A DNA stretch of 64,000 nucleotides from an archaeon (GCA_043797265.1 JAZDPV010000018.1:1-64000), one strand, 5' to 3'. Counted from the stretch's first letter, positions 23,421 to 36,645 are shown. The notes: generated by a model not told the origin, from the sequence alone. Numbers and translations are program-made.

Positions 23421-24067
23421 TAGTCATTTAGTCCTTTTTGTTTTGCGCAGGATGGGCAGATTAGAGCGGTGTCTTTGAGGGACATGTAATATCGGTTGCC
23501 TTCTTCGAGAATGTTGTTGAATTTTTCCCAGCCTTGCTCGATTGTCAGTTTGCCGTCGACAACTTCTTGCGGGACTCTTGACGCCTCTTCCAAAAGTTCT
23601 ATTCTTTTCTTGAATATCTTGTAATGGTATAAATTTGGTTTCGTTGTTTTTGATAATTTTTTTTGACAGAGGAAACATTTGGGTTGGGTTATCAGGAGTT
23701 CTTGCTCGCGGACCGCCCATTGAAACTGGAAGTCGGCGTCCTGAATTAAATGTTTGTAGTTGCCGATGCCGCCGAGTCTTTTGAATTTTAAATTTATTTC
23801 TTCTTTTGCGTCTTTAATATTTGTTGTTATTTCCCCGATTTTTTTTGAGTAGCGCCAGATTATATACTTTTTATTTTTGTCTGGCGTGATTGACGGCTTG
23901 CCAATTCTATATCCTTTTGAGCCGGTTTTTATTTTTCCTATTGTTATTTCTTTTTTGCCCTGCTTGATTTTTTCTTTTTTTTCTTTTAATTTTCTTTTTA
24001 TTGTTTTTTCTTTTTTTGAGATGTAGCCTTTTTCGCCGGGTAGAATGTCTGGAGTTTTTATTGGCAT
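23420..24067 (-). CDS. basic zinc-binding protein, possibly degenerate HNH-like fold
   Basis: CFLC...LYHY...LICPSC; stop/start overlap with the GIY-YIG gene. Confidence 0.6.
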   Translation of the reverse strand: MPIKTPDILPGEKGYISKKEKTIKRKLKEKKEKIKQGKKEITIGKIKTGSKGYRIGKPSITPDKNKKYIIWRYSKKIGEITTNIKDAKEEINLKFKRLGGIGNYKHLIQDADFQFQWAVREQELLITQPKCFLCQKKLSKTTKPNLYHYKIFKKRIELLEEASRVPQEVVDGKLTIEQGWEKFNNILEEGNRYYMSLKDTALICPSCAKQKGLND

Positions 24068-24142
24068 TTTGTGTAGAGGGATTTTGGGTTTTTAAGAGTT
24101 GGGATAGTTAGATTTATATAGGGAGATTTGTGTTTGTTTCTG

Positions 24143-24289
24143 GTTCGATCCAAAACTTAAATGTTTGGGTCAGGAGAATTTTGCGATTGGTTGGTCGCGA
24201 TAAGCGCTTGAGTGCTATCAAGTTGGTTATCAAGTAGTTGGGCTACTGGACACCGCTCGGTGTACCCTAAAATATAAAGGGCAAATAAA
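24143..24289 (+). promoter_or_regulatory. structured 5' leader of the ribosomal superoperon
   Basis: TATA-like tttatata at 24113-24120; about five consecutive hairpins, several with G-U pairs, before rpl3. Confidence 0.55.
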
Positions 24290-25234
24290 ATGACAGACAA
24301 TAATGGAATACGAAGTGGAAGTTTGCAGTTTTACCCGAGGGTGCGGGCGAAAAAAGTTTTGCCGAATGTGAATTGGAAGCCGGTAAGGAGAGACGGTGTC
24401 GGGTTCATGGGATTTATTGGCTACAAGGTTGGGATGGTTTCTGTTTGGGCGAAAGATAACACTGCTGATTCGTTGACGAAGGGGAAGAAGATTGTTATTC
24501 CGGCGACGATTGTCGAGTGCCCGGTGATGAGAATTTATTCTGTCCGATTTTACAGGAATGGGAAAGTTTTGAAAGATGTCGTTGTCGCGAATGGGAAGGA
24601 GTTAAAGAGGAAGGTAAAGGTAGGGAAGAAAGTTGGCGAGATTAAAGACGATGTTGAGTTTGATGATGTGAGGGTGATTTTGTCGTCGGGAGTTGGGATG
24701 ACCGGGATTGGGAAGAAGAAGGTTGACTTGATTGAGGTCGGGATTTCTGGGAGCAAGGATGAGAAGTTGGCTTTTGTAAAAGAGAGAATTGGGAAAGATA
24801 TTTTAATTGGGGATGTGTTTTCTGTGGGGTTGGTCGACGTGAGGGGTGTGACAAAGGGGTATGGGACGATGGGTCCGATGAAACGGTTTGGGATTTCTTT
24901 GAAGGCGCACAAGTCCGAGAAGGGACGGAGGCGGCCAGGTTCTTTGGCACCGTGGCATCCGGCGAGAGTTACTTTCAGAACGCCGATGATGGGGCAGACG
25001 GGTTATCATAGCAGAATTAATTATAATAATTTAATTTTGAAAGTTGGGAAGATTGGCGAGAAAGATATTAATTTGAAGGGTGGGTTTGAACATTATGGCG
25101 TCGTGAAAAATGATTATTTGATTTTGAGAGGTTCGATTCCGGGGCCGAAGAAGCGGGGGCTTGTGATTAGTCAGGCGATTAGACCGACGAAAATTGTGGC
25201 GAAAAAAAAGTTTGAGGTGATGGAGTTGAGATGA
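24290..25234 (+). CDS. rpl3: 50S ribosomal protein uL3
   Basis: RSGSLQFYPRVRA, GYKVGM, VTKGYG, GQTGYH. Confidence 0.98.
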   Translation: MTDNNGIRSGSLQFYPRVRAKKVLPNVNWKPVRRDGVGFMGFIGYKVGMVSVWAKDNTADSLTKGKKIVIPATIVECPVMRIYSVRFYRNGKVLKDVVVANGKELKRKVKVGKKVGEIKDDVEFDDVRVILSSGVGMTGIGKKKVDLIEVGISGSKDEKLAFVKERIGKDILIGDVFSVGLVDVRGVTKGYGTMGPMKRFGISLKAHKSEKGRRRPGSLAPWHPARVTFRTPMMGQTGYHSRINYNNLILKVGKIGEKDINLKGGFEHYGVVKNDYLILRGSIPGPKKRGLVISQAIRPTKIVAKKKFEVMELR

Positions 25235-26055
25235 TAGCGAAATTATTTGACAAGAGTGGCGAGGTGAAGGGCGATGTTGATTTGCCGAAATGTTTTGGGG
25301 CGAGAGTCAGGAAGGATATTTTATTGAAGGTTTTTGAGGCGCAGAAGGGAATTTATTCGCAGGCGTATGGGGCGATGGAAGGGGCAGGGGCTCAATATTC
25401 AGCGTCGGGGATTTCGAGGAAGAAGAGGCACGCGTGGAAAGGAACTTATGGGAAAGGCATTTCAAGAATTCCGAGGAAGATTATGTCGAGGCATGGAGCG
25501 TCGTTTAATTGGATTGGGGCGACTGTTTCAAATACTCGAGGTGGGCGAAGACCTCATGCTCCGAAATCCGAGAAAAATCCATTCAAGAAAATTAACAAGA
25601 AAGAATTGACGATTGCGTTTAGTTCGGCGTTGAGTGGGAGCGGGAAAAACATAATTATTTTTGAAAAGAGTGTTTTGGATTTGAAGTCGAAGGAATTTTT
25701 TGGTTTGTTGAAGAAGATATTTGGGGACGCTAAGATTTTGAAGGTCAAGAGGATTCGGGCCGGGATTGGGAAAATGCGTGGGCGAAAGTATAAGTCGAAT
25801 GCGGGTTTGCTTTTTATTATTGGTTCCGACGAGAAAATGGCAAGGAAAGGAATTGATGTCGTTGGCGTTGGTGATTTGAGGATAAAGGATTTGGTGCCGA
25901 ATGGTGAGGTTGGGCGGATGATTTGTTATTCGGAAAATGCTGTGAAAGAAATTGGTTTGAAATTTGAGGGGAAGAAAAATGGCTCACGGATGAACACAGA
26001 TAGACACGAATTAAAGAAAAAGGAAACTAAGAAAAAAGCTGGGGGGAAGAGATGA
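25231..26055 (+). CDS. rpl4: 50S ribosomal protein uL4
   Basis: GISRIPR, TRGGRRPHAPK, IRAGIGKMRGRKY. Confidence 0.97.
   Translation: MIAKLFDKSGEVKGDVDLPKCFGARVRKDILLKVFEAQKGIYSQAYGAMEGAGAQYSASGISRKKRHAWKGTYGKGISRIPRKIMSRHGASFNWIGATVSNTRGGRRPHAPKSEKNPFKKINKKELTIAFSSALSGSGKNIIIFEKSVLDLKSKEFFGLLKKIFGDAKILKVKRIRAGIGKMRGRKYKSNAGLLFIIGSDEKMARKGIDVVGVGDLRIKDLVPNGEVGRMICYSENAVKEIGLKFEGKKNGSRMNTDRHELKKKETKKKAGGKR
25975..26018 (+). repeat. AATGGCT + 3x10-mer (CACRRATRRA-like) element, copy 1, in frame in uL4
   Basis: cacggatgaa cacagataga cacgaattaa. Confidence 0.85.
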
Positions 26056-26306
26056 AGACTATTATATTGGAGAAGGTGAAGTCGACGGAAAAAATTGTGC
26101 GACAGATTGAGGCAGAGAACGTTTTGGTTTTTGTCGTCGATAGAGCGGTGGACAAGTTGGAGATTAAAAACGAGGTTGAGAAATTGTTTGGCGTGAAAGT
26201 GGTTAAGGTTCGGACGCACACTTTAAAGAACAAGAAGATTGCTTATGTTAAATTGAAGTCGGATTATCCCGCGGTGGATGTTGCGACGAAGTTGGGGATG
26301 ATGTGA
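26052..26306 (+). CDS. rpl23: 50S ribosomal protein uL23
   Basis: TEK....E.EN.LVF.V...K.AYVKL. Confidence 0.95.
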   Translation: MKTIILEKVKSTEKIVRQIEAENVLVFVVDRAVDKLEIKNEVEKLFGVKVVKVRTHTLKNKKIAYVKLKSDYPAVDVATKLGMM

Positions 26307-26421
26307 TGAAATCGGATATTTCATCTGGTGATATTTTTGTTTCGCAAAAATGGAGATATGACGCTTTGCGTCGAGGAGATAATCGCTTCGCGATTGGTGA
26401 TACGACTTCATCGTGGATGAA
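26305..26421. repeat. linker-plus-hairpin micro-array (linker WGGWGATA)
   Basis: Hairpin over the stop codon, then linkers at 26326, 26351, 26374 and 26395, each followed by a hairpin. Confidence 0.85.
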
Positions 26422-26444
26422 GATTGATGGAGGTTTGAATTGAG

Positions 26445-27143
26445 ATGGGCAAAAGGATAATTCAGCAGCGACGGGGAAAGGGCGGGCATGTTTACAAGAC
26501 GAGAGAGGAGGCGGGGAAATTTAGGCCGGGATATTTGTCGAACATGGACGGGGAATTTGAGTGCGTGAAATTGTCGTCGTCGGTTGGGCATTCGGTTCCG
26601 ATTGCGAAGTTTATTTCGAAAGAGGGGAAGGCGTTTGAGAATTTTGCTGTGAATTTGTTGTATGTCGGGCAGAAGATTGTTTTCGGGGGGAAGAACGCCG
26701 GGGATGTTGCGCGACTTGGTGATTTGAAAAGTGGTACTGAGATTTTTAATATTGAACACAACCCGAAGGACGGCGGGAAGTTTGTCAGGACTGGCGGGAA
26801 TTTTGCGACGATTATGGTTAGAGAGGGAGATGTGGTGAAGGTTATGTTGCCGTCGAAGAATGTCAAGAAATTTAATGTTGATTGCCGGGCGACTGTCGGG
26901 CGGGCGGCTGGGGACGGGCGGTTGGATAAACCGATTTTGAAAGCGGGGAAGCAGTTTTATATAATGAAGATGAAATCAAAGTTGTGGCCAAGGACTTCTC
27001 CTGTTAAGATGAACGCGATTGACCATCCGTTCGGGTCTGGACGAGGGAAAAGAATTAAGAGCAAGATTGCGAAGAGGAATGCGCCGCCAGGAAAGAAAGT
27101 TGGGATGATTAGACCGAGAAGGACGGGGAGGAAGAAGAGATGA
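26445..27143 (+). CDS. rpl2: 50S ribosomal protein uL2
   Basis: MGKRIIQQRRGKG, MNAIDHPFG. Confidence 0.98.
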   Translation: MGKRIIQQRRGKGGHVYKTREEAGKFRPGYLSNMDGEFECVKLSSSVGHSVPIAKFISKEGKAFENFAVNLLYVGQKIVFGGKNAGDVARLGDLKSGTEIFNIEHNPKDGGKFVRTGGNFATIMVREGDVVKVMLPSKNVKKFNVDCRATVGRAAGDGRLDKPILKAGKQFYIMKMKSKLWPRTSPVKMNAIDHPFGSGRGKRIKSKIAKRNAPPGKKVGMIRPRRTGRKKR

Positions 27144-27213
27144 AATCTTTGATTTCATCAGTTCGCTTCGCTGGAAGTTGGAAGTTCGCTTCGCTGGAAG
27201 TGGGGCTTCGCCC
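27139..27213. repeat. stop-codon hairpin, duplicated GCTTCGC unit and GGGC-TTC-GCCC hairpin
   Basis: gatgaaatc-ttt-gatttcatc; agttcgcttcgctggaagt at 27160 and 27183. Confidence 0.8.
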
Positions 27214-27251
27214 GACCTGGATTATATTTGGCTTGGAGGGATTTAGCTAAG

Positions 27252-27644
27252 ATGGCGGAATTAATTAAGAGGAGCAAGGATAGGTTTTATCGAGGGAAGA
27301 AAGTCGCGGATTTGAAGGATGTTGATATTCGGGAATTTGCGAAATTGACGAAGGCGAGAGCGAGACGGGCGTTGTTGAGAAATTATGATATTGTCGAGGC
27401 GCTTGTGAAAAGATGGGAGAGATATAATGTGAAGAAGAAACCGATAAGGACGCATAATCGGGAAATTGTAATTGTGCCGAAGATGATTGGATGGACTATT
27501 GGAGTTTATAATGGGAAGGAATTTTTGAAAGTTGTTATTAGTGAGGAGATGTTGGGGCATCGGCTGGGAGAGTTTGCGATGACGAGGAAGGTTGCTAAAC
27601 ATACAAGCATTGGAGCGAAGAAGGCGCCGAAGGAAAATGGATAA
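27252..27644 (+). CDS. rps19: 30S ribosomal protein uS19
   Basis: IRTHNR...VYNGKEF...MLGHRLGEF. Confidence 0.97.
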   Translation: MAELIKRSKDRFYRGKKVADLKDVDIREFAKLTKARARRALLRNYDIVEALVKRWERYNVKKKPIRTHNREIVIVPKMIGWTIGVYNGKEFLKVVISEEMLGHRLGEFAMTRKVAKHTSIGAKKAPKENG

Positions 27645-28149
27645 AGAAAAAACTGGCGAGATTGAAAAAGAAGTTGTTTCCGAAGAGAAGAAAGAAGAGA
27701 AGAAAGATGTGAAGAAAGAAGTCGTGAGGGGGAAAGTTGTGAAGAAAAATATGGCATTCGCGAGAGGGGCTGGGTTGAATGTTTCGCCGAAGCAATGTAT
27801 TTGCATTTGCAAAGTTATTCGGGGGAAGAATCCGGATGTTGCTGTTGCGCGGCTGCAGGATGTTATCGACGGGAAAGGGGTTATCCCGATGGCTGGGCTG
27901 GAAGTCGGGCATAGAAAAGGCAAGGGGCTGGCGGGCGGGAGATTTCCGAAAAATGCGTGCAATGCTGTTATAAATATTGTGAAGCAGGTTGCGGCGAATG
28001 CTGTCGTTGCCGGAATTGAGAATCCGGTGATTGCTGTTGCCAAGGCTGATAGGGCATCGGCTCCGTTCAGGCGTGGAGGGCGAAGAGCGAAGAGATGTAA
28101 TCTTTATTTAGAAGTGAGAGATAAAACTAAATTGGCGGGGAAGAAATAG
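27637..28149 (+). CDS. rpl22: 50S ribosomal protein uL22
   Basis: VSPKQ..IC..IRGK, GRFPKNA. Confidence 0.95.
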   Translation: MDKEKTGEIEKEVVSEEKKEEKKDVKKEVVRGKVVKKNMAFARGAGLNVSPKQCICICKVIRGKNPDVAVARLQDVIDGKGVIPMAGLEVGHRKGKGLAGGRFPKNACNAVINIVKQVAANAVVAGIENPVIAVAKADRASAPFRRGGRRAKRCNLYLEVRDKTKLAGKK

Positions 28150-28847
28150 TGGAAGAAAAAGCGTTTGTTGGAGTGCGAAGGGATGAGTATAATATTCGGG
28201 AATTTGTAAAGCGGATGTTTGGGATGGGGAAAGTTTCGCGAGTGAGGATTGAGTATACTCCGGTTGGCGAAAAGGTTGTCGTGGCGACGCATAGACCTGG
28301 TTGGATTATCGGGAAGGGCGGGGAAAAAATTAATGAGTTGACCGAAATTTTGAAGAAGCGGTTTAAGATGGAGAACCCGCATGTTGATATCGAGGAGATT
28401 ATGAAGCCCGAGTTTGATGCTCAACTGGTTGCCGACGACATTGCTTTGACGCTCGAGAGATTTGGGGCGCAAAAATATAAGGCGTCGAGTTATCGGGCTT
28501 TGGATAGAATTAAGAAAGCGGGGGCTTGGGGGGCTGAGTTGAGATTGTCAGGGAAACTGCCGAGCGACAGGGCGCGGAGTTGGAGATTCGCGTTTGGTTA
28601 TTTGAAGAAAACTGGCGACGCTGCGAGTGTTGTTGATAGGGCTGAATCTGTTGCTGTTACAAAGCAGGGCGTTGTCGGGATTAAGGTTGCGATTTTGGCT
28701 CCGGGGGTTAAGGTTTATGACCAGATTGTAATTGACGAGGATTTTATGAATCAGATTAAGAAAAACGCGACATTTGAGGAAGTTGAGGAGACGGTTAAGA
28801 AAAAGAAAAGAAGTGTGAAGAAAAAAATTAAGGAGGGTAGGAAATGA
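28149..28847 (+). CDS. rps3: 30S ribosomal protein uS3 (GTG start)
   Basis: RPGWIIGKGG KH domain; SGKLPSDRAR. Confidence 0.97.
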   Translation: MEEKAFVGVRRDEYNIREFVKRMFGMGKVSRVRIEYTPVGEKVVVATHRPGWIIGKGGEKINELTEILKKRFKMENPHVDIEEIMKPEFDAQLVADDIALTLERFGAQKYKASSYRALDRIKKAGAWGAELRLSGKLPSDRARSWRFAFGYLKKTGDAASVVDRAESVAVTKQGVVGIKVAILAPGVKVYDQIVIDEDFMNQIKKNATFEEVEETVKKKKRSVKKKIKEGRK

Positions 28848-29038
28848 TGGCGGAGAAGAAAATGACGGTTAAGGAAATAGATAAGAAGATTATGGACTTG
28901 AAGATTGAGTTGCTGCGGAATCCGACGAAAAAGGGAAAGATTAAAAGGGAAATTGCGCGGCTTCTTACCATGGGGAACCGAGAGAACAGAGAATTAAAAA
29001 TGAAGACTTTAACTAAACTGGAGGATGCGAAGAAGTAA
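28844..29038 (+). CDS. rpl29: 50S ribosomal protein uL29
   Basis: LKIELLR...IKREIARLLT; operon position. Confidence 0.85.
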   Translation: MMAEKKMTVKEIDKKIMDLKIELLRNPTKKGKIKREIARLLTMGNRENRELKMKTLTKLEDAKK

Positions 29039-29337
29039 TGGATATTTGTCCGAAGTGTGGACTGCCTTTGGCGGCGTGTGTCTGCGGCGAGATTGCCAAG
29101 ACGCAACAACAAATTGTTGTGAAGACCGAAAAAAGGCGTTTCGGAAAAGTTAATACGATTATAACCGGATTTGATAATGGCGTCGACGTTAAGGATCTCG
29201 CGAAGCGGCTCAAAATGAAGCGGGCTTGCGGTGGCACGACGAAAAACAATGTTATCGAATTACAGGGAAATCACAAAGGTCACATTAAACCGATTTTGGT
29301 TGAAATAGGATTTAGTGAAAATCAGATTGACGATTAG
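29038..29337 (+). CDS. sui1: translation initiation factor aIF1 (SUI1)
   Basis: CPKCGLP..CVC, ACGGT, IELQGNH. Confidence 0.95.
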   Translation: MDICPKCGLPLAACVCGEIAKTQQQIVVKTEKRRFGKVNTIITGFDNGVDVKDLAKRLKMKRACGGTTKNNVIELQGNHKGHIKPILVEIGFSENQIDD

Positions 29338-29366
29338 CGCGTTTGCGTGAGGTGATAGAGAATAGA

Positions 29367-29714
29367 ATGGCAGAGAAAAAGGTAAGGAAGAAAATAGAAA
29401 TAAAGGTCGAATGTAAAGATAGACTTTGTCCTCGGCATGGGGATAGGAAGTTGAAATTGAGGGGGCGGGTTTTTGAGGGGGTTGTGATTAGAAAATTTCC
29501 GAGGAGAGTCACGATTGAGTTTGAGAGGATGTTGAAGTTGCCGAAGTACGAGAGATATGAGAAAAGGAAAACCAAGATTCACGCGAGATTGCCGGATTGC
29601 ATGAAGGATGAAGTTGCCGTTGGTGATTTGATTTTGATTGCGGAGACGCGACCAATTTCGAAGATGATTCATTTTGTTGTTTCGAAAGTTGTTCGGAAGG
29701 GGGCGGGGGAATGA
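29367..29714 (+). CDS. rps17: 30S ribosomal protein uS17
   Basis: C.D..CP.HG, KYERYEKR, ETRPISK. Confidence 0.97.
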   Translation: MAEKKVRKKIEIKVECKDRLCPRHGDRKLKLRGRVFEGVVIRKFPRRVTIEFERMLKLPKYERYEKRKTKIHARLPDCMKDEVAVGDLILIAETRPISKMIHFVVSKVVRKGAGE

Positions 29715-29774
29715 GATATGCTTTGATAGAAAAAGGGCTTCGCCAAATTTTATTTAATGTTTTGGAGGTAGAAA

Positions 29775-29981
29775 ATGAAGGCGATTAGTGCGCATCATGA
29801 GTATAAGGTGGGACTTAATTCTGGTAATTGGTATGGGGTTAGAGAGAGCGGGTTGCCGAGTGATAGAGAAGTTATTGGGGATTTAGAGGATGATAATAGT
29901 GTTTTTGCCTGTGGTCTTTTTGGCATTGGTACATCTAAAATAAAAAAACCTAAAGCGAGGAATGAAAATGAAGGCGATTAG
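29775..29981 (+). CDS. 68-aa orphan ORF created by an insertion at the rpl14 start
   Basis: SD GGAGGT at 29764; begins with the same MKAIS as uL14; bounded by a 20-bp direct repeat. Confidence 0.45.
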   Translation: MKAISAHHEYKVGLNSGNWYGVRESGLPSDREVIGDLEDDNSVFACGLFGIGTSKIKKPKARNENEGD

Positions 29982-30369
29982 TGGGCGGGTGACGAGGGGG
30001 TTGAATATTGGGAGTTTGGTTGATGCGTGTGATAATAGCGGGGCGCGGATTGTAAAAATTGTGGCGGTGAAACACGGGAAGACGTCGAAGGGACGGCAGG
30101 GTTATGCGAAGGTTGCGGATTGGGTGAAGGTTTCGGTGAGAAAGGGAGACCCGAAGATGAAGGGCGAGGTTTTTGATGCGGTGGTTGTTCGGCAGAGAAA
30201 ATCGTGGCGAAGAAACACGGGCGAGAGAGTTTGCTTTTCGGATAATGCGGTTGCGTTGTTCAAGGACGAGAAGGGAAATCCGAAGGGGACGCAGATTAAG
30301 GGTGCGGTCGCGAGGGAAGTTCAGGAAAGATGGAAAGAAGTCGCTAAAATTGCGGGGAGTGTTTATTGA
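29968..30369 (+). CDS. rpl14: 50S ribosomal protein uL14
   Basis: DNSGA, F.DNA, PKGTQIKGAVARE. Confidence 0.97.
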   Translation: MKAISGRVTRGLNIGSLVDACDNSGARIVKIVAVKHGKTSKGRQGYAKVADWVKVSVRKGDPKMKGEVFDAVVVRQRKSWRRNTGERVCFSDNAVALFKDEKGNPKGTQIKGAVAREVQERWKEVAKIAGSVY

Positions 30370-30486
30370 TGGGAAAATTAAAAATTTTCCCATGGGGATA
30401 CGAGAAACTTTGTTTCTCGAGGGGATATGGCTTCGCCATGGAGATAGACGCTTCGCGTCGGGTGATTGCGCTTCGCGCGGGTGAAT
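30369..30486. repeat. linker-plus-hairpin micro-array (linker NGGNGAT-like)
   Basis: 11-bp hairpin at the stop codon; linkers at 30393, 30420, 30439, 30460 and 30479 separated by four perfect C-TTY-G hairpins. Confidence 0.9.
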
Positions 30487-30495
30487 GGAGGAAAG

Positions 30496-31017
30496 ATGAA
30501 GTCGAAATTTAATAAATCGTGGAATGCGAGTGTGAAGCCAAGGAAACAGAGGAAGTTTTTGGTGAATGCGCCGAATCACATTAGGCGAAAGTTGATGGGA
30601 GCGACGCTGGATAAGAGATTGAGGGCGAAGCATGGGGTGAGGAGTATTGAAGTTCGGAAGGGCGATGAGGTCAAGGTTATGAGAGGGAAGTTTGCGAAGA
30701 AGCAAGGGAAAGTTGGGGGGGTTGATGTTAAGAATTGCCGGATTCAGATTGATGGATTACAAAGAGAGAAAAAGGGTGGAGAGAAAGTTATGACGTGGTT
30801 CCATCCGTCGAGTGTGAAGATTGTTGTTTTGGATGATAGTGATAAAAGACGGTTTAAACGGAAAGGTTTGGAATCTGGGAAAGTAAAATTAAGAGAGGGG
30901 AAAAATGGCTCACGGATGAACACGGATGAGCACGGATTAAAGAATAAGGAAAATAGAAAAGTTGATAGAATCGTTAAGGGGAAAATAGATAAAATGGAAA
31001 AGGAGATTAAGAAATAA
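30496..31017 (+). CDS. rpl24: 50S ribosomal protein uL24 with C-terminal extension
   Basis: PRKQRK...[18 protein letters not shown]. Confidence 0.96.
30901..30944 (+). repeat. AATGGCT + 3x10-mer element, copy 2, in frame in uL24
   Basis: cacggatgaa cacggatgag cacggattaa. Confidence 0.85.
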
Positions 31018-31676
31018 TGGCGCATATAAAGAAAACTGAAATGCCGACGCTGTGGCCGATTTCGAGAAGAGGGAAGAGAAAGAGATTTATCGCTGTTCCT
31101 GCTCACGCGACTTCGAAGGGAATTAGTTTGTTGTTTTTACTTAGAGATGTTTTGAGAGTTGTTGAGACGAGGAAAGAAGCGAGATATATGACGCTGAATG
31201 GGATGGTCAAAGTTAATAATGTTGTTCGGAAGGATGAGAATTTTCCGGTTCAGGTGTTCGATGTGTTAGGGTTAGAGAAGGGTGGATTGAATTATAGATT
31301 AGAGATTGTTAATGGAAAGTTTAGGTTGAATGAAATATCCGAGAAAGAGGCTGGGGAAAAAATTGTGAAGATTTCCGGGAAAAAGGTTTTGGGCAAGGAT
31401 AAGATTCAGATGAATTTGGATGATGGGCAGAATGTTTTGAGCGGGGAGAAATTTTCCGTCGGTGATTCGGTTTTGTTTAATACGAAAGAGAAAAAAGTTG
31501 TGAAAATTTTGCCGTTAAAGAAGGGGGCAAAAGTTGAAATTGTTTTGGGAAAGCACGCGGGGGACAAGGGCGAGTTGGTTGGGTTTGAAGATTTGGCCCG
31601 CGGGCGGAATTATGAAATTAAATTGGGGGACAAGATTGTGAGATTGCCTTACAAAACTATCTTGGTGATTGGATGA
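31017..31676 (+). CDS. rps4e: 30S ribosomal protein eS4
   Basis: HIK...P..WPI.R, LRDVL, GKHAG. Confidence 0.95.
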   Translation: MAHIKKTEMPTLWPISRRGKRKRFIAVPAHATSKGISLLFLLRDVLRVVETRKEARYMTLNGMVKVNNVVRKDENFPVQVFDVLGLEKGGLNYRLEIVNGKFRLNEISEKEAGEKIVKISGKKVLGKDKIQMNLDDGQNVLSGEKFSVGDSVLFNTKEKKVVKILPLKKGAKVEIVLGKHAGDKGELVGFEDLARGRNYEIKLGDKIVRLPYKTILVIG

Positions 31677-31692
31677 TGGGGGTAGACGATAG

Positions 31693-32235
31693 ATGGTAGA
31701 TGGTAATAATGTGATGAGAGAAATAAAACTGGAGAAGGTTATTTTGAATATCGGGGGCGTCGAGGATAAATTGAATAGAGGGGCGATTTTGCTGGAGAAA
31801 ATTTCGGGGAAGAAAGTGGTGAAGGTCAAGGCGACAAAGAGGATTCCGAGCTGGAATGTTCGGCCGGGACTTGAGGTTGGTGTCAAGGTTACGTTGAGGG
31901 GCGACGACGCGCTGGAGATGGTGAAGAAGTTGTTGCCGGCGATTGATAATATTTTGAAGGAGAAGCAGATTCAGGATAATTGTTTTTCGTTCGGGATTCA
32001 TGAGTATATCGAGATTCCGGGAGCTGAGTATATTCGGGAAGTTGGGATTATGGGGTTCGAGGTGACGGTTGTTTTTAGCCGGGCGGGAAAGAGTGTCGAG
32101 CAGAAAAAAATTAAGCGAGGCAAGATGCGAAGGTCGGTTGTGACGAGGAAGGAAATTGAGGATTATGTTGTAGATAAATTTGGGACGGAAATTTTGCGGA
32201 AGGAAAAGAAGTTGGAGGGGGAAGATGAGGAATAG
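31693..32235 (+). CDS. rpl5: 50S ribosomal protein uL5
   Basis: MREIKLEKVILNIG, VKVTLRG, FSFGI.EYI. Confidence 0.96.
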   Translation: MVDGNNVMREIKLEKVILNIGGVEDKLNRGAILLEKISGKKVVKVKATKRIPSWNVRPGLEVGVKVTLRGDDALEMVKKLLPAIDNILKEKQIQDNCFSFGIHEYIEIPGAEYIREVGIMGFEVTVVFSRAGKSVEQKKIKRGKMRRSVVTRKEIEDYVVDKFGTEILRKEKKLEGEDEE

Positions 32236-32239
32236 AAAT

Positions 32240-32278
32240 AATGGCTCACTAATGAACACGAATGAACACAGATTTAAA
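32240..32278 (+). repeat. AATGGCT + 3x10-mer element, copy 3, intergenic
   Basis: cactaatgaa cacgaatgaa cacagattta. Confidence 0.8.
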
Positions 32279-32303
32279 TTAAATAGGGAAGTTGGGGGAG
32301 GAT

Positions 32304-32534
32304 ATGACGTCGAGTGATTGGAGGAAGATAACGAAGCAGTTGAGGGGGAAGCCGGCGGTGTTGAAAAAGTTTTTGAAACATAATAAACCGAAGGCGAGGA
32401 AATTTGGCGTCGCTGTTAATAAATGCGAGGTTTGCGGGCGGACCGGGGCTCATATATCAAGTTATAATCTAAATTTGTGCCGACATTGTTTCAGGGAATT
32501 GGCGGTTGAATTGGGGTTTAAGAAATACTCATGA
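32304..32534 (+). CDS. rps14: 30S ribosomal protein uS14
   Basis: CEVCG...LCRHCFRE.A..LGFKKY. Confidence 0.96.
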   Translation: MTSSDWRKITKQLRGKPAVLKKFLKHNKPKARKFGVAVNKCEVCGRTGAHISSYNLNLCRHCFRELAVELGFKKYS

Positions 32535-32580
32535 GAAGGAAAATAGATAATAGAAAATTGGAAATAGGAGGAAATTTCAG

Positions 32581-32952
32581 ATGAGTCATGATGTTGTTGC
32601 GGACGGGTTGAATCAGATAATGAACGCGAAAGCGGTGGAGAAGGGTGAGGTTGTGATTAGACGGGGTTCGAAAGTTTTGGTTAAATTATTTAAGATGATG
32701 AAAGAGTTGGGGCATATTGATTATAAGATTGAGGACGGGGATATTATTGTCAGGATTTTGAAGTTAAATGAATGCCGGGCGGTGAAGCCGAGATATTTTG
32801 TCGGGGTTGATGGGATTGACAGGTACCTTAGGAGATTTTTGCCGTCGAGAAATTTCGGAACTTTAGTTATTTCTACGAACAAGGGATTGATAACGCACAA
32901 GGAAGCTTTGAAATTAAATATTGGGGGAAGCGTTGTTGCTTATTTTTACTGA
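32581..32952 (+). CDS. rps8: 30S ribosomal protein uS8
   Basis: LPSRNFG.LVIST..G...H.EA....GG. Confidence 0.96.
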   Translation: MSHDVVADGLNQIMNAKAVEKGEVVIRRGSKVLVKLFKMMKELGHIDYKIEDGDIIVRILKLNECRAVKPRYFVGVDGIDRYLRRFLPSRNFGTLVISTNKGLITHKEALKLNIGGSVVAYFY

Positions 32953-33533
32953 TGAATAAAGATTTGATGAGAGAGATTGAAATTCCGACGGGGGTTGAAG
33001 TTTGTGTTAACGGGAATGAGGTTGTTGTGAGAGGGAGCGGAAAGGAGTTGAGAAAAAGTTTTGATAAAGGGAAGGTTGTGATTGAAGTCAAGGACGGGAA
33101 AATTGTTTTGAGTGTTTCGGGGGCGAGTCGTCGGGAATCGAAGATGATTGGAACGATTTGGGCGCATTTGAAAAATATGATTAAGGGAGTTGGCGAAAAT
33201 TTTGTTTATGAGCTGGAGATTTGCAATATTCATTTTCCGATGAACGTTTCCGTTGTTGAAACAACGGAAAAGGGTACAGGCATCAGGAATCAGAATTCAG
33301 GCAAGGTTGTGATTAAAAGTTTTTTGGGGAGAGTGAAGGAGAGAGTTGCGCGGATTATGCCGGGGGTGAGTGTTGAAGTGAAAGGGAATAAGATTGTCGT
33401 TAGTTCAGGAGACATTGAGGCGGCAGGACAGACCGCGGCGAATTTAGAGAAAGCGACGAGGCTGGTTGGTCGGGATAGGAGAGTTTTTCAGGATGGAATT
33501 TACATAACTAAAAAACCTTATAGGAATATTTAA
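32952..33533 (+). CDS. rpl6: 50S ribosomal protein uL6 with an internal ~12-aa insertion
   Basis: HFPM, GQTAANLE, DRRVFQDGIYI. Confidence 0.96.
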   Translation: MNKDLMREIEIPTGVEVCVNGNEVVVRGSGKELRKSFDKGKVVIEVKDGKIVLSVSGASRRESKMIGTIWAHLKNMIKGVGENFVYELEICNIHFPMNVSVVETTEKGTGIRNQNSGKVVIKSFLGRVKERVARIMPGVSVEVKGNKIVVSSGDIEAAGQTAANLEKATRLVGRDRRVFQDGIYITKKPYRNI

Positions 33534-33534
33534 G

Positions 33535-33885
33535 ATGGAAAGAAAGAAGCCGAAATTTTTGAGGAAGGACTGGCACAAGGAAATTAAACTCGGGAGGACG
33601 GTGAAGAAATTGCGGAAGTGGCGGGCGGCGAAGGGGAGACATAACAAGATTAGATTGAGTAGGAGAGGACAGTCGCGGAGGCCGAAGATTGGATGGTCAT
33701 TAGGGGGCAGTAGGAAGGGAGTTGGTGGTAAGTATGTTTTGAATTTGAAGGATTTATCGTCGGTAAAAAAAGGTGAGGGAATTTTGATTGGGGCCGTTGG
33801 GGGGAAGAAGAGAAAGGAAATTGTTGCGAAGGCGAATGATATGGCTGTTAAGATTTTGAATAAATATAAGGTGGTGAAAAAATGA
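33535..33885 (+). CDS. rpl32e: 50S ribosomal protein eL32
   Basis: KKPKFLR.DW...KWR..KG..NKIR. Confidence 0.93.
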   Translation: MERKKPKFLRKDWHKEIKLGRTVKKLRKWRAAKGRHNKIRLSRRGQSRRPKIGWSLGGSRKGVGGKYVLNLKDLSSVKKGEGILIGAVGGKKRKEIVAKANDMAVKILNKYKVVKK

Positions 33886-34286
33886 ATTTGGCTAAGCGAA
33901 AAGAGTTGGCGGCGAAAGTTTTTGGGGTCGGGAAAGGCCGGATTATTTTTGTGAAAGATAATTTACCTGAAATTAAAGAGGCGATTACGCGGATGGATAT
34001 TATTGATTTGCATAAATCGGGAGCAATTAAAATTAGAGAGATTAGGGGACGGAAGAAAATTGTGAGAAGGCGACATAGAAGAAGAGTTGGAAAAGTTAAA
34101 GGGAAGGTTAGTGATAAGAAGGCGGAGTATGTGATAATCACGAGGAAGTTGCGGAAGTTTGTGAGAGGATTGGTGAGGGCGGGAAAAATTAAGAGAGAGA
34201 GAAGCGGGGAAATTCGGAAAGAGATTCGAGCGCGGAAGTTCAAGAGCAAAAGACATCTTAAAGAAATTTTGGAGGAAGGGGAATGA
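33882..34286 (+). CDS. rpl19e: 50S ribosomal protein eL19
   Basis: LAA.V.GVGK.RI, AITR.DI. Confidence 0.93.
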   Translation: MNLAKRKELAAKVFGVGKGRIIFVKDNLPEIKEAITRMDIIDLHKSGAIKIREIRGRKKIVRRRHRRRVGKVKGKVSDKKAEYVIITRKLRKFVRGLVRAGKIKRERSGEIRKEIRARKFKSKRHLKEILEEGE

Positions 34287-36195: not shown

Positions 36196-36645
36196 ATGAG
36201 AGTTCATAAGAGGAAGAAGTCATCGAGAATTCGTGGGGGAAAAACTTGCGGGTGGGGATTTAGGCAGAAGCACAAGGGGCATGGGAATAAAGGTGGGACT
36301 GGAATGGCTGGGAGCGGGAAGAGGGCGGACCATAAAAAACAATCTGCGTTGATGTCTGATGAGAAAGGGCAGTATTTTGGGAAGCAGGGGGCGACGTCGC
36401 GAGGAACAAAAAAGAAAAAATATGAAAAAATTAATTTGTGCGATATTCGGGCTAACTTTGATGGGAATAAGATTGATTTGAGTAAGCATAAGATTCTTGG
36501 GAAGGGCGAAGGGTTTAAGGCGGAAATTTTGGCGAAGAGCGCGAGTGTGAGCGCGATTGAAAAGATGGAGAAGGCGGGTGGTCGAATTCTTATTGTGAAT
36601 TCGAAGAAATCAGGTGTCAGAAATCAGGTGTCAGAGGAAAATTAA
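36196..36645 (+). CDS. rpl15: 50S ribosomal protein uL15
   Basis: RG..TCGWG, GG.GMAG, KILGKG, SAIEKME.AGG. Confidence 0.96.
   Translation: MRVHKRKKSSRIRGGKTCGWGFRQKHKGHGNKGGTGMAGSGKRADHKKQSALMSDEKGQYFGKQGATSRGTKKKKYEKINLCDIRANFDGNKIDLSKHKILGKGEGFKAEILAKSASVSAIEKMEKAGGRILIVNSKKSGVRNQVSEEN

Follow-up and report, generated by a model that had tools for sequence, protein, structure and literature searches.

What brings two unrelated ribosomal proteins to carry the same peptide? The question is raised by a 64,000-nt stretch of archaeal DNA (GCA_043797265.1 JAZDPV010000018.1:1-64000, hereafter the window; contig C18 of the genome designated G000), in which a DNA element made of AATGGCT and three tandem 10-mers is read in frame as a 14-residue peptide in the open reading frames (ORFs) of uL4 (25975-26016) and uL24 (30901-30942). 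A third copy stands 4 nt past the stop of uL5, upstream of uS14 and outside any long ORF. We describe here a dispersed repeat family with in-frame inserts in essential proteins, empty orthologous sites in relatives, a link between the repeat arrays and GxxExxY genes that crosses the domains of life, and polymorphism of the GxxExxY cassettes. The element probably derives from a small selfish element based on a GxxExxY nuclease, as a "solo" form that lacks the gene and is tolerated where it lies in frame.

Three copies in the window

The sequence and positions of the copies in uL4 and uL24 had been proposed in an original prediction, together with an intergenic copy after the rpl5 (uL5) stop at 32240, and all three were confirmed. 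The sequence AATGGCTCAC occurs exactly three times in the window, corresponding to the three copies, and the two-unit motif CACRRATRARCACRRAT, allowing at most one mismatch, gave six matches, all within these copies, against 0.04 expected; none of 100 shuffles reached six. Searches of PDB assigned the hosts with E = 1.8e-21 to 9nri_BE for uL4 (phmmer) and E = 2.4e-28 to 6skf_BX for uL24. Homology to solved archaeal uL4 stops at about residue 242 of 274 and that to solved uL24 at about residue 131 of 183, so that copies 1 and 2 lie in C-terminal tails outside the conserved fold. A 170-nt contig from a public DNA sequencing run, which contains 0.13 of the sequence words and may be the source sample of this genome, is identical across 25904-26073 and spans copy 1. 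It was the only one over this copy among 16 short contigs from the run, and no empty-site variant was seen at this coverage, which is far too thin to be informative. The public runs listed as carrying the sequence included none of RNA.

A repeat family dispersed in the genome

The G000 assembly is a Woesearchaeota-like bin of 625 kb in 18 contigs, 83% complete, and the closest named match of one of its genes is in a Candidatus Woesearchaeota bin. Scanning for at least two core hexamers at a spacing of 8-14 nt returned 39 clusters, against 3 in the reversed genome used as control. Two clusters, one a CDC48 motif and the other a pair spaced by 8 nt, were attributed to chance and removed, and 37 arrays were kept, each with two to three CACGGAnnnn units at a period of 9-10 nt. 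They occur in coding and non-coding DNA, which supports the earlier proposal that the peptide common to uL4 and uL24 comes from a DNA repeat and not from protein homology; the proposal had underestimated the scale, since LeuRS, ABCE1 and Kae1 also carry arrays. The element has four parts, namely an upstream box (TGTAACTTG/ACGACTTG or GCTCACGRA), a purine-rich spacer terminating in (A)ATnGCw, the two to three units of CACGGA with a 3-4-nt spacer, and an end that is either oligo-T or TTAAAGAAAA. Units of one array have a common spacer (TGAA, CTAA, CAAA, CGAA, CCAA or TGGA).

On any given contig all G000 arrays point one way, sense throughout, and none is antisense in a confirmed gene. Crude ORF calls had placed three arrays antisense in long ORFs; one of these ORFs is an unread upstream extension of ValRS, and the other two, which have no Pfam match and adjoin real co-oriented genes, were not counted as genes. 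The deposited G000 contigs are skewed in composition overall (A > T, C > G), and in a second genome of the genus (G015) all 26 arrays, on 8 contigs, fall on the reverse strand. The contigs of these assemblies therefore seem to be oriented non-randomly, and no biological meaning should be given to counts per strand that pool contigs. Most non-genic copies are found 2-150 nt past the end of a co-oriented ORF, also when the next gene is convergent. A run of at least five T follows 14 of the 28 non-genic copies versus none of the 9 in-gene copies, and T4 or longer was found at the end of 22 of the 28. Oligo-T runs are transcription stop signals in archaea. An Rfam search (evalue mode) of the window from 24000 to 34000 and of eight GxxExxY loci gave chance-level matches only (E 0.23-0.87).

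In-frame copies in essential proteins

Nine arrays are located in ORFs: one each in uL4, uL24, LeuRS, Kae1, a radical-SAM protein, eL31 and a Zn-ribbon ORF, and two in ABCE1. Every one is read in a single stop-free frame (…SRMNTDEHG…), and the insert length is a multiple of 3 for every in-gene copy. The LeuRS insert corresponds to a 14-residue gap in T. thermophilus 2v0c and the ABCE1 inserts to two gaps versus P. abyssi 3j15_B, while residues 184-209 of Kae1 are unaligned against residues 181-184 of P. abyssi 2ivn. In the PDB search with the radical-SAM protein, the alignment ends upstream of the insert and thus gives no confirmation of it. According to the original prediction, the frame was kept because three 10-mers make 30 nt. 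This explanation is insufficient, as the insert at the uL4/uL23 junction is actually 84 nt long; with inserts exceeding 30 nt, the frame is kept by selection on the whole insert.

Two side observations concern these hosts. The LeuRS of G000 is of the bacterial type (best solved matches T. thermophilus and other bacterial LeuRS, E = 3e-205; 1e-49 with P. horikoshii LeuRS). Within the eL31 array, GGATGGAC gives an in-frame ATG (MDADSGKK...), a candidate for the true start of this protein.

Empty and filled sites in the genus

Orthologous sites were compared in 49 genomes of the genus, including G000, by anchoring on the flanking protein blocks; usable anchors were available in at most 29 relatives per site. 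The uL4/uL23 junction, 86 nt in G000, measures 10 nt or less in 19/29 relatives, with an ATGA stop/start overlap, and the closest empty sites are of 2 nt, which makes an 84-nt insertion in G000. An array of the CACGGA family was present in the uL4 tail of 1/29 relatives (G023), and the same genome is the only one with an array in the uL24 tail, the other 18 of 19 relatives having tails of 73-151 nt without it. The uL5/uS14 spacer, which contains copy 3 and is 107 nt long in G000, is reduced to 22-46 nt in 13/19 relatives; a decayed array was detected there in G056. Similar results were obtained for Kae1 (78 nt in G000, at most 21 nt in 20/29 relatives), ABCE1 site 1 (84 nt, at most 30 nt in 16/29), ABCE1 site 2 (105 nt, 39-45 nt in 28/29) and LeuRS (69 nt, at most 18 nt in 8/28). 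Arrays are found at the uL4, uL24 and LeuRS sites in G023, as in G000. Since the orthologous sites are empty in relatives, the inserts are lineage-specific. This comparison had been suggested for the two ribosomal tails, and it gave an array in 1/29 relatives for uL4 and in 1/19 for uL24; broad conservation of the peptide without the DNA periodicity was not found among the genus relatives.

Association with GxxExxY genes

PF13366, the Pfam family of GxxExxY proteins, gave 8 matches at 7 loci of G000 (53-139 bits, cut-off 22), six intact and one split, and G000 proteins scored 129.5 and 135.4 bits on TIGR04256 (cut-off 35). An array lies 30-70 nt 3' of the gene at 7/7 loci, two of which also have a 5' array, and a 3' array is also found beside most of the GxxExxY genes retrieved from genus relatives. 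Triple arrays are present in 13 of the 49 genomes and the gene in 12, distributed as arrays plus gene in 12, arrays only in 1, gene only in 0 and neither in 36. Arrays are in excess over genes, with 18/7 in G000, 26/2 in G015, 33/6 in G044 and 10/3 in G056.

Subfamilies can be distinguished among the solo arrays, and they correspond to the 3' arrays of individual GxxExxY gene copies. Examples are the pairs formed by the solo array at C7:18141 and the C16:19173 gene array (100% identity, 35 nt), by the one at C12:36641 and the C2:42960 gene array (93%, 44 nt), and by the Kae1 copy and the C16:22450 gene array (92%, 38 nt). The window copies cluster with those of LeuRS, ABCE1 site 2 and C12:57456. 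The gene cassettes themselves are polymorphic. In G000, G061 and G023, GxxExxY-1 separates a pfkB-type kinase gene from the gene that follows it; the two abut or overlap in G056, G019, G024, G008, G013, G050 and G044. ATGA is present at both borders of this cassette as a stop/start overlap, which could be a target-site duplication but which selection for a stop and a start would equally produce. GxxExxY-2 lies between two direct arrays of 50 nt (98% identity) and is missing at the same place in G056, G061 and G044.

The GxxExxY protein, of about 125 residues, is encoded by the sole gene between the arrays, where no recognised transposase was found. A structure model built from 41 sequences reached a mean pLDDT of 92.8, and its best Foldseek matches were Cas4 SSO0001, lambda-type exonucleases, MGME1, the Hjc resolvase and the catalytic domain of I-Bth0305I (E 1e-4 to 8e-3, TMq 0.35-0.56). 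In these 41 sequences E36 (of the GxxExxY motif), D75, E85, Q99 and Y103 are invariant and K87 is conserved in at least 90%, in agreement with a catalytic D...E.K. The protein is a minimal PD-(D/E)XK nuclease, predicted to be active. A PDB sequence search with the GxxExxY profile gave no match at E <= 1. In the accessible text of PMC3424549, PF13366/TIGR04256 (PDDEXK_3) is listed with function "Unknown" and multiple transfers. A literature search, supplements not covered, found nothing in print on repeats flanking GxxExxY genes, and searches with 17-mers of the repeat gave no match.

GxxExxY loci in other phyla

A degenerate-pattern scan recovered 587 relatives of the GxxExxY protein, of which the best 80 loci (49-88% identity) were analysed. 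They come mostly from bacteria, including Desulfobacteria, Bacteroidota, Ignavibacteria, Chloroflexi, Nitrospirae and Acidobacteria, and also from Methanosarcinales and others; Flavobacterium succinicans LMG 10402 and Draconibacterium orientale DSM 25947 are carriers available in culture. Arrays were defined here as at least two C[AG]C[AGT]GAT units, 8-13 nt apart, within 200 nt of the gene. Forward arrays were found upstream at 42/79 loci and reverse arrays downstream at 37/78; the opposite orientations were rare (6 upstream, 10 downstream), and the controls gave 2/72 and 1/72 at 300-500 nt downstream and 0 in reversed sequence. That similar 10-mers flank GxxExxY genes in other prokaryotes had been put forward in the original prediction, and it thus holds at these frequencies as well as at all seven loci of G000. 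Both ends carry arrays in 46/80 loci, inverted around the gene. In these 46 loci the unit type is common to both ends at a frequency of 0.64, versus 0.26 in shuffles (0/2000 as high), a figure which is inflated by the relatedness of the loci.

An in-frame ATG in or beside an array unit, giving N-termini such as MNADxQDFKHKELTE, was present in 11/42 loci with an upstream array, and the array was in the open frame in 19/42. To regard this open frame as nothing but the native GxxExxY N-terminus is therefore only partly correct, and in a minority of full elements the natural coding frame coincides with the stop-free one of uL4 and uL24. In five unrelated genomes to which these loci led, the scan counted 22, 24, 15, 47 and 6 triple arrays (controls 0) versus 6, 2, 8, 3 and 7 gene matches, with arrays bracketing the genes at about 430-490 nt and gene-less close plus/minus pairs. 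This is the picture of an autonomous element accompanied by gene-less derivatives.

Proposed origin and rival explanations

The following scheme would account for these observations. The full element would be a PD-(D/E)XK GxxExxY gene bounded by arrays of two to three tandem units of about 10 nt, with the consensus C[AG]C[AGT]GAT and a 2-4-nt spacer. In bacteria and Methanosarcinales the arrays make up inverted terminal repeats on either side of the gene, and also gene-less array/loop/reverse-array units; in the present genus the order is direct and sense, from the gene to the 5' box, (A)ATnGCw, the arrays and oligo-T. The nuclease may recognise the phased 10-mers, bind or cut them and mobilise the arrays with or without the gene. 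Solo copies would have spread in this way to at least 37 places of a gene-dense 625-kb genome almost devoid of spacer DNA, persisting at gene ends, at gene junctions and between conserved protein blocks. Within genes, the survivors would be only the copies in an open frame and without the oligo-T end, which is how unrelated proteins would come to share one peptide.

Several points weigh against this scheme. No array has an inverted partner in G000, the arrays being direct, unlike those of other phyla, so the bacterial picture of terminal inverted repeats does not transfer simply to this genus. Some co-occurrence of genes and arrays is expected in any case, since an array accompanies each gene and the genomes are related, and one genome (G051) has three arrays and no detected gene. 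For the TGAA subfamily, to which the three window copies belong, the assembly (83% complete) contains no cognate GxxExxY gene. No target-site duplication was found at the in-gene copies, and no transposition event or excised form was seen. The spacer common to the units of one array also fits slippage or gene conversion. In other species the Kae1 and ABCE1 loops carry unrelated repeats (see below), hence site permissiveness or a mechanism independent of GxxExxY contributes. Finally, it is the open frames only that suggest that the inserts would be translated into the mature proteins.

Other explanations were considered. The position of most non-genic copies just past co-oriented ORFs, even before convergent genes, their T4+ (22/28) and T5+ (14/28) ends, the sense orientation of every copy and a unit period of 9-10 nt, equal to one helical turn, are what would be expected of cis elements useful to the host (portable 3'-end oligo-T terminators of the archaeal type and/or 10-bp-phased operators for a DNA- or RNA-binding protein) spread by selection, with the in-gene copies as by-products. 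We find this unlikely given the patchy distribution in 13/49 genomes, the empty orthologous sites in most relatives and the tight link to a horizontally transferred nuclease gene; moreover a terminator would be harmful inside ORFs, where the nine copies have lost the T-run, and neither an Rfam family nor an RNA structure was found. Folding gave z = +0.94, -0.84 and +0.88 for the three window copies, -0.97 for one GxxExxY flank and -0.45, +0.77, +0.38 and +1.26 for four in-gene copies. Only at the first ABCE1 site (C12:76631-76667; L186:1310-1400, minus strand), alone among the five in-gene copies folded, do the host flanks pair over 14 bp (z = -2.99), a helix made by the flanks and not by the element. 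This helix is the one argument for an intron-like removal of the arrays from RNA, for instance by the archaeal splicing endonuclease, in which case the shared peptide would never be made. With eight other folds between -0.97 and +1.26, no consistent bulge-helix-bulge pairing at the borders (flank helix in 1/5 in-gene copies), and a stop-free frame and multiple-of-3 length in all in-gene copies that excision would render unnecessary, the intron reading was dropped as highly improbable. Both flanks of the ABCE1 site also hold GATATC-like words, and their pairing may be due to chance.

Independent growth of each array by slippage, as in microsatellites, with the shared sequence as a convergence, would explain why the units of one array share their own spacer and would agree with the heptamer arrays of many different units seen in G000. 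It is hard to reconcile with copies that share non-repetitive flanks ((A)ATnGCw, the TGTAACTTG/ACGACTTG or GCTCACGRA box, and TTAAAGAAAA or oligo-T), that are 88-100% identical across 30-50 nt, and whose core units flank GxxExxY genes in other phyla, and we give it very little credit. Misjoining of contigs at repeats could be suspected in an 18-contig metagenome bin that is 83% complete. Nevertheless, each in-gene copy is bordered on either side by host protein in the right frame and register, the 170-nt contig of the public run spans copy 1 without a difference (though this run may be the source sample), and the independent genome G023 has arrays at the same uL4, uL24 and LeuRS sites, so an assembly artefact is scarcely conceivable.

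Insertion hot spots and LeuRS domains

The sites occupied in G000 receive other repeats in relatives. Unrelated heptamer arrays were found at the Kae1 site in G044, G046, G056 and G019, and at ABCE1 site 1 in G061, G046, G019, G023 and G044. A third, non-tandem element of about 60 nt (GCCGCACGCGGCA...ATCGGGC; ARGTPSE...SG) is in frame at the Kae1 and ABCE1 sites of G018 and also at the Kae1 site of G007 (L233, L242 and L202 being G018/G007 loci). The presence of several repeat families at the same loops indicates permissive sites that were struck repeatedly. At the uL4/uL23 junction, G019 and G044 have tandem repeats of the CGCTTAAGAA type.

At the position of the LeuRS array, between the catalytic core and the TTRPDT start of the editing domain, 15/28 relatives carry whole in-frame domains of 405-1167 nt, stop-free and multiples of 3. 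Three kinds of domain are involved, namely a HAD fold, Ser_hydrolase PF06821 in one or two copies, and a further type of hydrolase. In G044, G061 and G015 the domain stands between direct arrays, and in G023 it has an array on its 5' side; the other 11 relatives with a domain have no arrays. Judged by identity at several loci, G061 and G044 rank among the closest relatives of G000, and since they display the array-hydrolase-array arrangement, the single array of G000 would fit a remnant left by recombination between two flanking arrays, as in solo long terminal repeats. A tentative extension is that the arrays might serve as docking or recombination sites of an in-frame cassette system, whose cargo would be gained, exchanged and lost at the arrays with the GxxExxY nuclease as initiator; a unit of cargo could be a GxxExxY gene, a small ORF or a whole enzyme domain. 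We hold this to be possible, on the doubtful side, the alternative being that the arrays merely settled in two tolerant linkers. If true, this would offer archaea with very small genomes a means of reshuffling the domains of their essential proteins.

Comparison with known systems

The behaviour of the element resembles that of three known types of repeats and fails the defining feature of each, respectively a palindrome, an HUH enzyme and a recognised transposase. Rickettsia palindromic elements (RPEs), which Ogata et al. reportedly described in 2000 in frame within protein-coding genes, are bacterial palindromic units of about 100-150 bp and have, to our knowledge, no associated enzyme gene. 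They are likewise short dispersed repeats of a small gene-dense genome, in frame in essential genes at places that are gaps in homologues, and give unrelated proteins a common peptide. In contrast, the present element consists of tandem 10-mers, without significant fold or palindrome in the nine copies folded, is here archaeal and is tied to a nuclease gene family. Repetitive extragenic palindromes (REPs, or REPINs as paired units) are intergenic hairpins associated with tyrosine transposases (RAYTs), which are HUH/Y1 enzymes of the IS200/IS605 kind. There too, a low-copy gene is flanked by repeats that also occur without the gene, and repeat variants pair with gene copies; here, however, the gene encodes a PF13366 PD-(D/E)XK nuclease and not an HUH enzyme, and its repeats, which are tandem 10-mers, are found within genes as well.

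The cyanobacterial short tandemly repeated repetitive (STRR) heptamers, as short dispersed tandem repeats, are the closest analogue of the heptamer family of G000; we know of no link between STRRs and a gene family, nor of their in-frame residence in essential proteins. As for insertion sequences and miniature inverted-repeat transposable elements, as treated in the accessible text of PMC10969869, the likeness lies in the array-gene-reverse-array units of about 0.5 kb and the gene-less array/loop/reverse-array units of other phyla, and the difference in that no recognised transposase is present, no target-site duplication was established and no inverted partner exists in this genus.

Our results propose a role for the very widespread GxxExxY/PDDEXK_3 family, namely as the enzyme of a compact selfish element with tandem 10-mer ends and gene-less derivatives. 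Repeats inside ribosomal proteins, LeuRS, ABCE1 and Kae1 affect gene calling as well as alignments and phylogenies of DPANN archaea, and they bear on the origin of new linkers and tails, perhaps of domain insertions. The shared hot spots and the array-flanked LeuRS domains suggest one way in which proteins may gain and lose domains in frame.

Feature coordinates and other repeats

Table 1. Coordinates of the window copies, of their host and neighbouring genes, and of the other array-bearing ORFs and LeuRS domains. Positions without prefix refer to the window; C, contigs of G000; L, loci of relatives.
Feature	Coordinates	Strand	Size	Remarks
uL4 gene	25231..26055	+		last ~30 codons form an insert-derived tail (29 residues)
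uL4 core end to uL23 ATG	25966..26051	+	86 nt	holds copy 1
Copy 1 core	25978..26016	+		AATGGCT + CACGGATGAA CACAGATAGA CACGAATTAAAG
uL23 gene	26052..26306	+		ATG overlaps the uL4 stop (ATGA), likewise in empty sites
uL24 gene	30466..31017	+		C-terminal tail holds copy 2; real start probably the ATG beginning MKSKFNK...
Copy 2 core	30904..30942	+		AATGGCT + CACGGATGAA CACGGATGAG CACGGATTAAAG
uL5 gene	31693..32235	+		upstream neighbour of copy 3
Copy 3	32240..32278	+		AATGGCT + CACTAATGAA CACGAATGAA CACAGATTTAAAT
uS14 gene	32304..32534	+		downstream of copy 3; start taken as the ATG of MTSSDW
LeuRS	C1:3514-6033		839 aa	insert at residue 247
ABCE1			631 aa	inserts at residues 412 and 559
Kae1			363 aa	insert at residue 194
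Radical-SAM protein			267 aa	insert at residue 162
eL31 ORF	C9:8765-9526 (L039)		253 aa	Pfam domain at residues 80-150; array in N-terminal extension
Zn-ribbon ORF (Pfam name)			80 aa	array in tail
LeuRS domain, example	L265:879-1538	-
LeuRS domain, example	L261:1949-2392	+
LeuRS domain, example	L270:1846-3012	-

In the segment between the uL4 core and uL23, a new G-rich stretch precedes the uL23 ATG. Eight relatives (L055, L059, L060, L063, L064, L067, L074 and L078) have unrelated inserts of 183-446 nt at this junction, resembling small ORFs, which makes the uL4/uL23 stop/start overlap an insertion hot spot, and inserts of 176-277 nt occur in the uL5/uS14 spacer of three relatives.

Near-perfect arrays of heptamers or 14-mers, 31-35 nt in length, also occur by the dozen in G000, many of them in long open frames, with units as varied as AGGTGTC, AGAAGTC, AGGCGTC, TCGCAGG and others. 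They were taken from a filtered set of 72 repeats, the permissive score of Tandem Repeats Finder having returned 1886 mostly trivial ones. No link of the heptamer families to GxxExxY was observed in the gene flanks examined. One array of this family (36605-36635) forms the uL15 tail ...KKSGVRNQVSEEN (ORF 36196-36645), and a near-identical 14-mer array encodes KSGVRNQASGV near the Kae1 C-terminus (C12:61269-61303). At the Kae1 site of G056 (L232), (GCAGGTC)x4 and (AGGTGTC)x4 flank a duplicate of about 39 nt of the downstream host sequence, LLELSYSVKGMD, which may be the footprint of an insertion mechanism.

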